64,000 bases of DNA from a virus. Its lineage: Duplodnaviria > Heunggongvirae > Uroviricota > Caudoviricetes. The notes under the pieces are model-generated. The model ran no database searches. It was not told the DNA's origin and saw nothing but the letters and a program-made list of their open reading frames with translations. A program made the position numbers and the translations under genes. The stretch lies in IMG/VR virus record IMGVR_UViG_3300049595_003752, positions 12,163 to 76,162 of that record, one strand, 5' to 3'. Shown piece by piece: positions 59,970-62,447 of this stretch. The stretch's first letter is position 1; each line of letters opens with the position of its first letter.

Positions 59970-60289
59970 TGTTTATAGAAAGAAATGAAAAAGACGGGGT
60001 AATTTCCTGTCTTTTTAAATCATCCAATATCTTGGCATCAGATTATAATCAAGAAAAAAAAGAATTAACTATAATCTTTAACGCAGGACGTAGATATACA
60101 TATTCTGATGTTAATCACAAAGATTACCATCGTTTTGAAATGGCTGAGAGTCAAGGTCAATTTTTCAATAAGTACATTAAAAAGTACCCAACAAAGAAAA
60201 ATAGTGATATTAACCCAGCAGAATTGTTAAACAGAGTAACAGAAATTTTAAATGAGCAAAATAGAACAACAATACCTAAATCTTCTTAA
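59969..60289 (+). CDS. KTSC-domain-like protein
   Basis: SSNILASDYNQEKKELTIIFNAGRRYTYSDVNHKDYHRFEMAESQGQFFNKYIK fits my recollection of the KTSC consensus. Confidence 0.45.
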   Translation: MFIERNEKDGVISCLFKSSNILASDYNQEKKELTIIFNAGRRYTYSDVNHKDYHRFEMAESQGQFFNKYIKKYPTKKNSDINPAELLNRVTEILNEQNRTTIPKSS

Positions 60290-60326
60290 AGATATCTTAG
60301 AAAATGGAACAAGAAAAAATGGATGA
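60252..60326 (+). pseudogene. 24-codon remnant of a second thymidylate synthase N-terminus
   Basis: [24 protein letters not shown] versus ThyA MNKLDLDYQNLLRDILENGTKKETRNGG; diverged at the nucleotide level. Confidence 0.5.
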
Positions 60327-60433
60327 AAAATACTTAGAAGATAACATGGATATGATATTTGGTACTGAATGTATAAACGGTAGTTTTAGTGTAAATCTTC
60401 GTAAAAAATTAGAAAATAATGTAGTAGAAAAAG

Positions 60434-61210
60434 ATGATAGAACATATTTATCTAATAAAGAAAAATATGGTAATATACAAGACTACAAATTTGGTGAATG
60501 ATAAAATCTATATCGGACAAGACAAAAACAATAACCCAAATTATTTAGGTTCTGGTAAAAAATTAAAAAGAGCTATTAAAAAATACGGTAAAAATAATTT
60601 TTTAAAAGAGGTTATTGAAATTTGTGATAGTGAAGAGTTACTAAATGAAAGGGAGATTTTTTGGATATCTTATTATAAATCAACAGATAGAAAAACAGGT
60701 TATAACATAAGTGACGGTAGTAAAGAAGGTGATAGAAGATTAGGGTATAATTCTCTTATAAAAAAAGGTAGGTATAAAACTTGGTTAGAAAAATACGGTA
60801 AAGAGGAGGCTGATAGAAAACATCATGAATGGAAACAAAAAATATCCGATTATCAAAAAATAAAAATGTTAAATGGTTGGTCTCACACTGAAGAGGTTAG
60901 AAAAAAAATCTCAGAAGCACAAAAAGGTAAAATTCTTACTCAAGAAACAAGAGATAAGATGAGAAAACCAAAACCAAATGGGTTTTCAGAAACCATATCA
61001 AAAATTAAAAAAGGTGTGCCTTTAGGACCTTCAAAAAGAAGAAAACCGGTTGACCAATTTGATTTAAAATGGAATTATATTAAAACTTGGGAGAGTATAA
61101 GTAAAGTTGAACAAGAGTTGAGAATTTATAACATAAACGCGGTCTGTAAAGATAAACAAGATACTGCCGGTGGGTATAGATGGAAATATAGTATAAAAGA
61201 AAATGAATAA
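60434..61210 (+). CDS. GIY-YIG homing endonuclease with NUMOD3-like DNA-binding repeats
   Basis: MVIYKTTNLVNDKIYIGQ...YLGSG...REIFWISYY; EVRKKISEAQKGK / ETRDKMRKPK repeats; C-terminal AGGYRWKY; alternative start at 60467; overlaps the thyA start by 8 nt. Confidence 0.75.
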   Translation: MIEHIYLIKKNMVIYKTTNLVNDKIYIGQDKNNNPNYLGSGKKLKRAIKKYGKNNFLKEVIEICDSEELLNEREIFWISYYKSTDRKTGYNISDGSKEGDRRLGYNSLIKKGRYKTWLEKYGKEEADRKHHEWKQKISDYQKIKMLNGWSHTEEVRKKISEAQKGKILTQETRDKMRKPKPNGFSETISKIKKGVPLGPSKRRKPVDQFDLKWNYIKTWESISKVEQELRIYNINAVCKDKQDTAGGYRWKYSIKENE

Positions 61211-62447
61211 ATTAGATTTAGATTACCAAAACCTATTAAGAGATATATTAGAGAATGGTACAAAAAAAGAAACTAGAAATGGTGGCACTATCTCAGTATT
61301 TGGAAGACAACTCCGACATGATTTTCGGGACGGATTTCCTCTACTCACCACCAAGCGAATGGCTTTTAAAGCGATTGTCACCGAGTTATTATGGTTTCTT
61401 AGAGGAGACACAAACATCAAATACTTAGTTGACAACAATTGTCATATTTGGGATGGTGATGCTTATAAGAACTTTGAAAAGAGATATTATAAAGAGATTT
61501 TTAATTATGAAACGGGTTCTCATAATAGATTAATGAGTTTAGATGAATTCATACTCAATATCAAAACAAATGATGAGTTTGCTAATAAGTGGGGTGATTT
61601 AGGTCCAATTTATGGTAAGCAATGGAGAAGTTGGGAAGGTGTAATAAAAAAACAATTAACATCTATAAGCTATGAAATGAATTGGGGTAGTCTTGACCAA
61701 ATCACAAACCTAATCAATGACCTTAAAACAAATCCAGACTCAAGACGATTAATGGTTAATGCTTGGAATGTAGGTGAATTAGACCAAATGGTACTTCCAC
61801 CTTGTCATTATGGATTTCAAGTTTATACAAGAGAGTTGAGTTTAGAAGAGAGAAAACAAATCTTCGATGACAGAGGCTATGTTTGTGATTTATGGCCTTT
61901 TAATGGTGATTGGCACGGTGAGTATGATGGTTTTGGAATACCTAGTAGAGCAATCTCATTAATGTGGAATCAACGTTCAGTAGATACATTCTTAGGTTTA
62001 CCATTCAACATTGCTTCTTATGGATTGTTATTAGAGATAATCGCTAAAGCAGTCAACATGATTCCTGATGAATTGATTGGTAATTTAGGTGATGTACATT
62101 TATATTCAAATCATGTTGAACAAGCTAAGGAACAGATTGGTAGAGATTATTCAGTTGGAGAAAGATTAGAATTTTTATCTGAAAAAAAACCTGACTTTAA
62201 TCCTGAAACCGCTTTTGGTATTACAAAACACATTGATAGTTATTGTCATTATGTTATTGACGATTACAGTATTCCTAGAAGAACAAGGGAACCTTATCCA
62301 CTACCTAAACTAAATATTAATTCAGGTAACGAAAATTGGCATCTATTAGATATTGATGATATTATAAATTCTTTAGATAATGAACTAACTTTTAAATTAG
62401 AAAACTATCAATCACACCCTAAAATATCAGCACCTTTAAGTAATTAA
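61203..62447 (+). CDS. thyA: Thymidylate synthase (ThyA) with three insertions (414 aa)
   Basis: Collinear with E. coli ThyA: FPLLTTKR, LLWFLRGDTN, DLGPIYGKQWR, DQI..LI..LK.NPDSRR, LPPCH, LGLPFNIASY (Asn gives dUMP specificity), HLYSNH, EPYPLPKL. Confidence 0.85.
   Translation: MNKLDLDYQNLLRDILENGTKKETRNGGTISVFGRQLRHDFRDGFPLLTTKRMAFKAIVTELLWFLRGDTNIKYLVDNNCHIWDGDAYKNFEKRYYKEIFNYETGSHNRLMSLDEFILNIKTNDEFANKWGDLGPIYGKQWRSWEGVIKKQLTSISYEMNWGSLDQITNLINDLKTNPDSRRLMVNAWNVGELDQMVLPPCHYGFQVYTRELSLEERKQIFDDRGYVCDLWPFNGDWHGEYDGFGIPSRAISLMWNQRSVDTFLGLPFNIASYGLLLEIIAKAVNMIPDELIGNLGDVHLYSNHVEQAKEQIGRDYSVGERLEFLSEKKPDFNPETAFGITKHIDSYCHYVIDDYSIPRRTREPYPLPKLNINSGNENWHLLDIDDIINSLDNELTFKLENYQSHPKISAPLSN

Follow-up and report, generated by a model that had tools for sequence, protein, structure and literature searches.

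A candidate homing cassette within the 5' region of phage thyA, the thymidylate synthase gene: a free-standing GIY-YIG endonuclease gene beside a displaced gene start and its probable replacement

We examined the thymidylate synthase gene (thyA) and the genes directly upstream of it in a stretch of 64,000 nucleotides (nt) of Caudoviricetes DNA (IMG/VR record IMGVR_UViG_3300049595_003752, positions 12,163 to 76,162), referred to here as the window and numbered from its first letter. The window is AT-rich (30% GC, guanine plus cytosine), and from ~59778 to 62771 it carries a tight series of same-strand open reading frames (ORFs) whose starts and stops overlap. Within this series the order is a KTSC-domain gene, an old thyA 5' end, a small ORF (orf65), an endonuclease gene, a new thyA 5' end and the remainder of thyA. 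The individual features, with lengths in amino acids (aa) where they are coding, are as follows.

59778-59969, + strand: orf63, the left-most of the run of same-strand ORFs
59969-60289, + strand: KTSC-domain gene, 106 aa, the left flank (Pfam PF13619, E 5.6e-16)
60252-60369, + strand: displaced thyA 5' end, here called the remnant, equal to thyA nt 1 to ~136 minus 18 nt
60252-60326, + strand: 24-codon ORF reported in the first-pass annotation, within the remnant
60304-60501, + strand: orf65, 65 aa, in the +1 frame of the remnant (family conservation and codon-position bias)
60467-61210, + strand: GIY-YIG endonuclease gene "variant 1", 247 aa, free-standing (Pfam, PHROG 314 and PDB 1LN0)
61203-61285, + strand: apparently imported replacement thyA 5' end (MNKLDLDYQNLLRDILENGTKKETRNGG), linked to the endonuclease variant
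61286-61385, + strand: GC-rich thyA "patch" (identity profiles; near-invariant nt across eight alleles)
61203-62447, + strand: complete thyA, 414 aa, long form (Pfam PF00303, E 1.5e-88)
61255-61428, + strand: +1-frame ORF inside thyA, 57 aa (...QYLEDNSDMIFGTDFLYSPP...), linked to orf65 by tblastn

The first-pass annotation, made from the letters of the window, had read the 24-codon ORF as homologous to the start of the downstream thyA. This was confirmed by local DNA alignment of 60230-60440 with 61180-61400, which scored 49, whereas 500 shuffled controls had a mean of 23.7 (standard deviation 3.3) and a maximum of 40. The homology is not confined to those 24 codons, however, since similarity resumes after an 18-nt deletion and continues up to 60369, which in a multiple alignment with intact thyA 5' ends corresponds to about thyA nt 136 (L083 numbering; L numbers designate the related loci we compared). 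The remnant at 60252-60369 and the working 5' end at 61203-61335 are about 60-70% identical. The single deletion removes thyA codons ~26-32, and the thyA frame of the remnant is full of stops, so that it is dead as thyA. It overlaps two other coding sequences, the 3' end of the KTSC gene, whose last 12 codons cover its first 38 nt, and orf65. A second alignment of the remnant, to KYLVDNNCHIW of thyA, was rejected; relatives show a +1-frame match to SVFGRQLRHDFRDG.

Comparison with related phages suggests which of the two thyA starts is native. The orf63-KTSC pair is kept in 15 IMG/VR loci and 13 metagenome loci, with ClpC-like sequence wherever the contig extends there. The closest endonuclease-free relative, L083, matches the window at 92% in ClpC, 100% in orf63 and 93% in KTSC; it has neither the endonuclease nor orf65, and the end of its KTSC gene overlaps an intact thyA start, the only one present; this thyA can be followed to nt ~335, where the contig ends. 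An alignment with related loci had been suggested in the first-pass annotation to see whether those without the endonuclease have one thyA start, and this is the case in L083, L178 and L087/L088, in all of which that start comes right after the KTSC gene. The L083 start agrees with the remnant in all of its first 36 nt and in 21 of 22 residues (95%). The working thyA of the window matches L083 at 73% over residues 1-97, and this figure conceals a strongly uneven profile: nt identity is 60-70% over nt 1-75, 97-100% over nt ~85-165, 83% at nt 166-195 and 33-73% beyond. Across the relatives compared, the working start (nt 1-75) shows 53-73% nt identity. Because the single start of L083 matches the remnant, we take the head of the remnant to be resident sequence and the working start (MNKLD...) to be imported.

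Two relatives that carry the endonuclease separate the history of the insert from that of its flanks. L177 is close to the window in orf63 (95%) and KTSC (87%) but its endonuclease, "variant 2", is ~40 aa longer and matches at only 54%, whereas L090 is more distant in orf63 (76%) and KTSC (74.5%) and much closer in the endonuclease (87%). Similarity of orf65 tracks the endonuclease (82% with L090, 74% with L177), while the first 22 codons of the remnant track the flank (95.7% with L177, 77% with L090). At the start of thyA, the initial 12 residues again track the endonuclease variant, MNKLDLDYQNLL occurring with variant 1 and MNKLDKQYTDLL with variant 2, and in L086 they are identical to those of the window even though the thyA bodies are only 61% identical. 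The head of the remnant (first ~40-50 nt) thus follows the resident lineage and the remaining part follows the endonuclease variant, which indicates that the part beyond ~50 nt belongs to the exchanged DNA. Since orf65 and the thyA start both track the variant, the co-varying unit would extend from about remnant nt 50 to thyA nt ~85; in the window this corresponds to ~60300-61285, roughly 1 kb with most of the remnant included. These comparisons indicate that the endonuclease is accompanied in transfer by a foreign thyA 5' segment. The content of the site differs between close relatives: the window has variant 1, L177 has variant 2, L083 has no insert, and L084 has a lipoprotein ORF. This polymorphism, together with the discordance between endonuclease and flanks, indicates that DNA here moves by recombination.

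Other arrangements of the same region were also seen. The lipoprotein-like ORF of L084 (4297-4605, 102 aa, MKKLLVLISSVILIGCS...) lies between KTSC and thyA in a phage whose ClpC is 95% identical to that of the window; the locus has no remnant, and its thyA begins MNKLD like that of the endonuclease-bearing loci. In L085 (380-900) and L179 thyA is deleted after ~22 codons, leaving KTSC and a short thyA start followed by unrelated genes, which suggests that the locus is generally unstable in this phage group. L183 (1-2050), probably a chimeric assembly, was left unused: it agrees at 100% with window 60087-60467 but continues as ECF-sigma-like sequence, with a switch exactly at the endonuclease start codon, a change in GC from 26% to 34% and a 172-aa ORF open across the join.

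The gene between orf65 and thyA was characterized by profile and structure-based matches. The GIY-YIG profile (Pfam PF01541) gave 22.7 bits with the 247-aa form, against a cut-off of 22.6, and 23.0 bits (E 1e-4) with the 258-aa ORF; the start kept in relatives is 60467 (MVIYKTTN), not 60434. PHROG 314, "homing endonuclease", covered residues 3-246 with an E value of 1e-40. The best solved-structure match was the catalytic domain of I-TevI (PDB 1LN0, E 5e-4), with VIY, YIG, ERE and YNI in register, so that the GIY, YIG, E and N motifs align, and the protein has a Seg-like YLGSGKKLKRAIKKYG segment where the I-TevI R27 region is gapped. These matches place it among the GIY-YIG, Seg-like homing endonucleases. 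It looks functional, given its intact ORF and aligned motifs, and the endonuclease ORFs are likewise intact in all relatives, with a ratio of nonsynonymous to synonymous polymorphism (pN/pS) of 0.30-0.47. The gene overlaps orf65 by 35 nt at its start and thyA by 8 nt at its stop, the stop codon falling within ATGAATAA of the thyA start; the latter overlap (60467-61210 with 61203-62447) is as the first-pass annotation described it.

The remnant itself appears to be old. The same deletion and the same end point recur in L086, L090, L091, L177 and L190-L195, and more generally, L199 apart, the loci with the orf65 core all have a thyA-derived remnant with one deletion and one end point, thyA similarity ceasing in all of them between ...GGTACTGAA and TGTATAAA. 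This holds even in the phages without KTSC or ClpC (type B, L190-L195). Compared with thyA, the remnant has reached saturation at its synonymous sites. We conclude from this common structure that remnants of the orf65 type very probably have a single, old origin. Since it is old, as judged by its saturated synonymous sites and by its occurrence beside non-endonuclease cargo as well, the remnant is not the footprint of the window's own acquisition. The first-pass annotation had interpreted the duplicated start as the footprint of a past homing or co-conversion event that imported a foreign 5' segment with the endonuclease; the travelling foreign segment survives our analysis, but the remnant is for the most part exchanged DNA, old and under coding constraint. 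A different remnant was found in another lineage, L101 (2875-3852), where 28 codons of a thyA 5' end (MKMNNLDKQYKALLQDILDNGVEKKDRN) stop near thyA nt 80 and directly precede endonuclease variant 2, with no orf65. Its end point and context point to a second, independent origin of such a structure.

The coding constraint on the remnant concerns orf65, which is read in a shifted frame across it. The orf65 ATG lies within the thyA "ENG" codons and is present in every variant, the frame is open in all of them, and its stop overlaps the start of whichever gene comes next. Codons 9-22 correspond to the +1 frame of thyA codons 32-46. The family consists of 12 protein clusters at 90% identity and three more found among 1.84 billion representatives; all 15 clusters and the window ORF share the core K/T/Q-YLEDN[M/S]D[M/L]IFGTEC, with 24 invariant columns, and the most distant member, P0014 (YLEDNSDLIFGTECLYGNFDIKLRDRLEN), has conservative changes in the core. 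Variable sites are distributed 9/4/19 over the three codon positions, and pN/pS lies at about 0.1-0.4, pS reaching 0.86. When the remnant is compared with thyA over the 14 codons after the deletion, differences fall 1/2/11 at orf65-frame positions 1/2/3 (P 7e-4), so that the +1-frame peptide has been kept (YLEDNSDMIFGTD in thyA+1, YLEDNMDMIFGTE in orf65) though the thyA frame has been destroyed. One antisense frame has the same third positions and is open across the core; neither the window nor L190 has a start codon for it. These patterns argue that orf65 is under purifying selection in the +1 frame and that the remnant is therefore not a dead footprint. We lean towards regarding orf65 as a genuine small gene, derived from a displaced thyA fragment by use of a shifted frame. 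Homology of orf65 with thyA(+1) past the junction could not be demonstrated, nt identity there being 22-38% with differences even over codon positions; BLAST extended the alignment past the junction, and P0014 keeps "LY". The family has no Pfam or PHROG match and no relatives beyond itself among the 1.84 billion representatives, and an AlphaFold model built with 12 sequences was uninformative (predicted local distance difference test 54, predicted template modelling score 0.21). If a displaced fragment has indeed become a small conserved protein, it would be a clear, datable case of gene birth from the debris of a selfish element.

On the thyA side, the unit is bounded by an unusual patch. This GC-rich segment (45% GC, against 30% for the window) is common to eight thyA alleles of the "LRHDFRDG" type. 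In its first 54 nt (61286-61339) only 1 of 18 thyA third positions varies, whereas over the 48 nt that follow at least 9 of 16 do. The left edge is sharp in all pairwise comparisons and the right edge differs by pair. We propose that the patch is the right homology arm or a co-conversion tract, and infer from its edges that it could be the product of repeated gene conversion from a break at the left edge. The loop haplotypes of thyA are of two kinds, short (ETRNGxT) and long (DRTGTGT). The short type is found in 5 of 6 endonuclease loci, L086 being the exception, and is also common in thyA genes without an endonuclease; short and long might hypothetically represent immune and sensitive alleles. 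A CNNNG motif of the I-TevI kind, at a fixed distance from the junction, was noted by eye in both thyA and the remnant and was set aside as non-discriminating.

The 57-aa +1 ORF at 61255-61428 is open only in patch-type alleles and is interrupted by stops in most other thyA genes. We regard it as the ancestral counterpart of the orf65 core, probably non-functional itself. The near-invariance of 61286-61339 could alternatively mean that this segment is dual-coding, with a functional YLEDNSDMIFGTDF peptide, and that orf65 is an overlapping gene which escaped through an endonuclease-associated duplication and then evolved free of thyA constraint. A change in L178 that alters thyA is silent in the +1 frame. 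Against dual coding, the +1 peptide beyond FGTDFL varies freely and the right boundary of the patch is graded, and we consider it unlikely. Were it true, it would be a rare traceable instance of a gene born inside another and released by a selfish element.

The position between the orf65 core and thyA behaves as a slot for several kinds of cargo, namely GIY-YIG variant 1 or 2, an alternative thymidylate synthase with an HNH endonuclease, Tad6, or an 83-aa ORF. In L196 (989-1735, KTSC-clade) a homologue of Tad6, an inhibitor of type I Thoeris (Pfam PF25188, E 7e-13), replaces the endonuclease, which indicates that the site also carries anti-defence cargo, and in L199 the 83-aa ORF (orf83) follows the orf65 core. 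The type B loci, L190 (3949-5797) and L191-L195, lack KTSC and ClpC; they have the remnant with orf58/60, then a 276-aa gene of the thymidylate synthase family, and downstream of it an HNH endonuclease with NUMOD3 and I-TevI_DNA-bd domains. Long thyA is absent from the called genes of L190-L195, among which no specific search for it was made. A further endonuclease was found at thyA in L087 (4284-6170) and also in L088 and L102, where thyA is present as two ORFs, in L087 one of 105 aa ending in a stop and one of 276 aa with its own ATG. In L087 a third, distant GIY-YIG gene (237 aa) splits thyA between residues ~97 and ~102. No intron was detected by Rfam in these three loci, and their thyA looks like a gene in pieces. 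The several arrangements indicate that endonucleases invade thyA by more than one route.

We interpret the locus in the window as a free-standing GIY-YIG homing cassette in the 5' end of phage thyA, the gene being kept intact by a replacement start that the cassette carries and no intron being involved, and we assign this reading a probability of about 0.68. The endonuclease would cut cassette-free thyA alleles within the 5' region, and the break would be repaired from a co-infecting cassette-bearing genome. The left arm would be the KTSC end with the first ~50 nt of thyA, preserved by the remnant, and the right arm the thyA body from the conserved patch on. Through repair the recipient would acquire the new thyA start together with orf65 and the endonuclease (~1 kb, ~60300-61285), and its own first ~50 nt would become the head of a new remnant. 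The predicted cut is placed near codons 26-32 of naive alleles (thyA nt ~76-96), because three features coincide there: the remnant lacks 18 nt, the remnant of L101 stops, and the patch begins with its sharp left edge. The founding event would have taken place once, long ago, as the repair of a break through homology confined to the thyA side, with the opposite side joined illegitimately; one-sided repair of this kind would give the layout of target 5' fragment, donor upstream DNA, endonuclease and intact gene. Later, the out-of-frame ORF across the old fragment would have gained protein-level selection, and the slot would have become a place of cargo exchange.

Several observations weigh against this interpretation. 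Both the activity of the endonuclease and its target site are inferred from sequence, and two I-TevI-like features of the protein are less clear: the equivalent of R27 is not aligned, since that region is gapped against 1LN0, and NUMOD3, part of the I-TevI-like GIY-YIG/NUMOD3 assignment in the first-pass annotation, reaches 19.0 bits, under the gathering cut-off of 20.4. The endonucleases of the window and L086 match at 81% and the flanks at 76-87%, with no sign of very recent transfer. L086 moreover has the endonuclease with a "naive-type" loop and no patch, while the endonuclease-free L083 and the working thyA of the window have the patch in common. The patch alone thus can't separate cut from uncut alleles, and a discriminating site, if any, would lie upstream of it. 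The orf65 module occurs with non-endonuclease cargo as well (Tad6 in L196, orf83 in L199), which means that the remnant could predate any endonuclease. Finally, the same structures would result from gain by homing as from loss, in which the duplicated thyA 5' ends recombine with each other; L083-like genomes could arise by such a loss equally well, and either direction of change would fit.

Three other explanations were weighed against the homing cassette. The first-pass annotation had likened the layout to that of the T4 td intron and I-TevI while regarding the endonuclease as free-standing. The td intron site of T4 is near codon 183. The two systems share the host gene and the catalytic family of the enzyme, but their architecture differs, as there is here no intron ribozyme, thyA is uninterrupted, the element lies at the 5' end, and the domain search gave no match to the I-TevI_DNA-bd domain in the window endonuclease. 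A td-like group I intron, with the 24-codon ORF as exon 1, an intron-encoded endonuclease and splicing to join the pieces, would suit that shared enzyme family and host gene, yet we judge it highly improbable. No Rfam match to a group I intron was obtained at E <= 10 in 59500-63000, the remnant carries stops and a deletion in the thyA frame, and the RNA fold of the remnant/orf65 region is no better than that of shuffles (z -0.86), on which ground an RNA element there was rejected. The downstream thyA (61203-62447) forms one complete, uninterrupted ORF that begins at a start codon of its own and encodes a full N-terminus, homologous to those of other thymidylate synthases; the gene needs no splicing, and the description of the endonuclease as free-standing is accordingly borne out.

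The remaining two concern the role of the endonuclease. The remnant and orf65 might be an old resident gene that arose when the 5' end of thyA was partly duplicated in the distant past, with the endonuclease settling later in the gap. This would account for the loci in which the orf65 core stands beside Tad6 or orf83 with no endonuclease before thyA, for the saturated synonymous sites, which make the remnant far older than a recent acquisition, and for the type B endonuclease, which is downstream of the thymidylate synthase gene and not beside orf65. We nevertheless think it rather unlikely, since the closest insert-free relatives (L083, L178, L087/L088) are without orf65 too, orf65 tracks the endonuclease variant and not the flanks, the second remnant in L101 abuts the same endonuclease family, and three of the five cargo types include an endonuclease. 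It is also conceivable, though unlikely, that the endonuclease is an inactive or domesticated relic and that the polymorphism reflects ordinary recombination at an accessory-gene island. The unrelated cargo at the site (Tad6, the lipoprotein ORF and orf83) and the unaligned R27 equivalent would fit this, as would the identical patch in working and endonuclease-free alleles, which offers no obvious pair of immune and sensitive sites there. A relic is harder to reconcile with ORFs that are intact in every lineage at the pN/pS values given above, with two divergent variants in exactly the same position, with sharp mosaic boundaries, and with three different endonucleases that target thyA across relatives, the GIY-YIG gene of L087/L088/L102 and the type B HNH gene included.

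Some features of the surrounding DNA were recorded alongside these analyses. Full-length relatives of thyA with 54-65% identity were present in 80 IMG/VR loci. The nearest cultured relative is Flavobacterium phage immuto, with ~71% nt identity in thyA only and other genes upstream. The Pfam match of the window thyA spans residues 7-327 on only 235 profile positions (2-236 of 266), which implies internal insertions and a C-terminal extension of ~90 aa in the 414-aa protein; this long form is common to many IMG/VR phage contigs. The locus is adjoined by an 859-aa ORF on the opposite strand (57151-59730, - strand) that, by reading of its sequence, resembles ClpB/ClpC-type ATPases; it is 84-95% conserved in the phage group and is unusual phage cargo. 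In L096/L097 and L185-L188 the ClpC-like match is broken in two parts ~1.2-1.5 kb apart, and the gene may be interrupted there. Promoter and terminator counts showed no excess over shuffles in a scan that doesn't cover Bacteroidota promoters.

Endonuclease genes can enter essential, conserved genes harmlessly via introns or inteins, or stay between genes. The locus described here would represent another route in phage, in which the old gene start is displaced by one that the element brings with it. In the literature searched, a route involving a carried gene end was met only in fungal mitochondria, there at gene 3' ends, and a limited search found no natural phage example with a retained fragment of the target gene. 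The metagenomic variants form a natural series of empty sites, two endonuclease variants, other cargo, a second remnant and split thyA genes, which would allow direct tests of target site, conversion tracts and cargo exchange. In Aeromonas phage Aeh1, nrdA is split by mobE and is a gene in pieces. The thyA of L087, L088 and L102, split by a GIY-YIG gene, resembles that case, whereas the thyA of the window is unsplit and the cassette appears to restore a single complete ORF.

Closer parallels exist for individual aspects of the arrangement. SegF, SegG and MobE of T4, which undergo intronless homing (PMC2988022), are like the window endonuclease in lying between genes and adjoining a gene of nucleotide metabolism; the window protein is a GIY-YIG enzyme with a Seg-like YxGSG. 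Flanking markers are co-inherited with the T4 genes and appear to be so here, and in both cases the element is present or absent among relatives. The Seg and Mob genes are, however, truly intergenic with no duplication of a neighbour, while here the insertion, judged against a naive genome, is inside the thyA coding sequence, apparently compensated by a carried 5' end, and cleavage is predicted. For the founding event, one-sided homology is known to support homing in T4 and to give illegitimate junctions (Parker et al. 1999, via the review PMC2988022). We propose that both remnants, that of the orf65 type and that of L101, originated by this route; in the T4 experiments too an element enters a site sharing one-sided homology, with junctions at microhomologies, although that was the td intron in a laboratory system and this is a natural locus.

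The closest described architecture, by analogy, is that of endonuclease ORFs with duplicated gene ends in fungal mitochondria, known from atp6-ORF360 of Allomyces macrogynus (Paquin et al. 1994) and from atp6, atp9, cox2 and nad3 of Glomus (PMC3630166). There the endonuclease gene enters a conserved gene, a foreign copy of the gene end keeps that gene whole, and the native end stays as a remnant that is closer to the genes of relatives (PMC3630166). The phage locus differs in that its displaced end has seemingly been taken over as a conserved out-of-frame small ORF, for which the fungal mitochondrial reports have no counterpart. It is also a mirror image in phage, with the 5' end and not the 3' end duplicated, and its endonuclease is a separate ORF in another frame overlapping thyA by 8 nt, whereas the fungal ORFs are fused in frame. 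What the two have in common is an endonuclease accompanied by a second, divergent copy of the end of the host gene, and a native copy that matches uninvaded relatives better, which in the phage applies to the first ~40-50 nt of the remnant.

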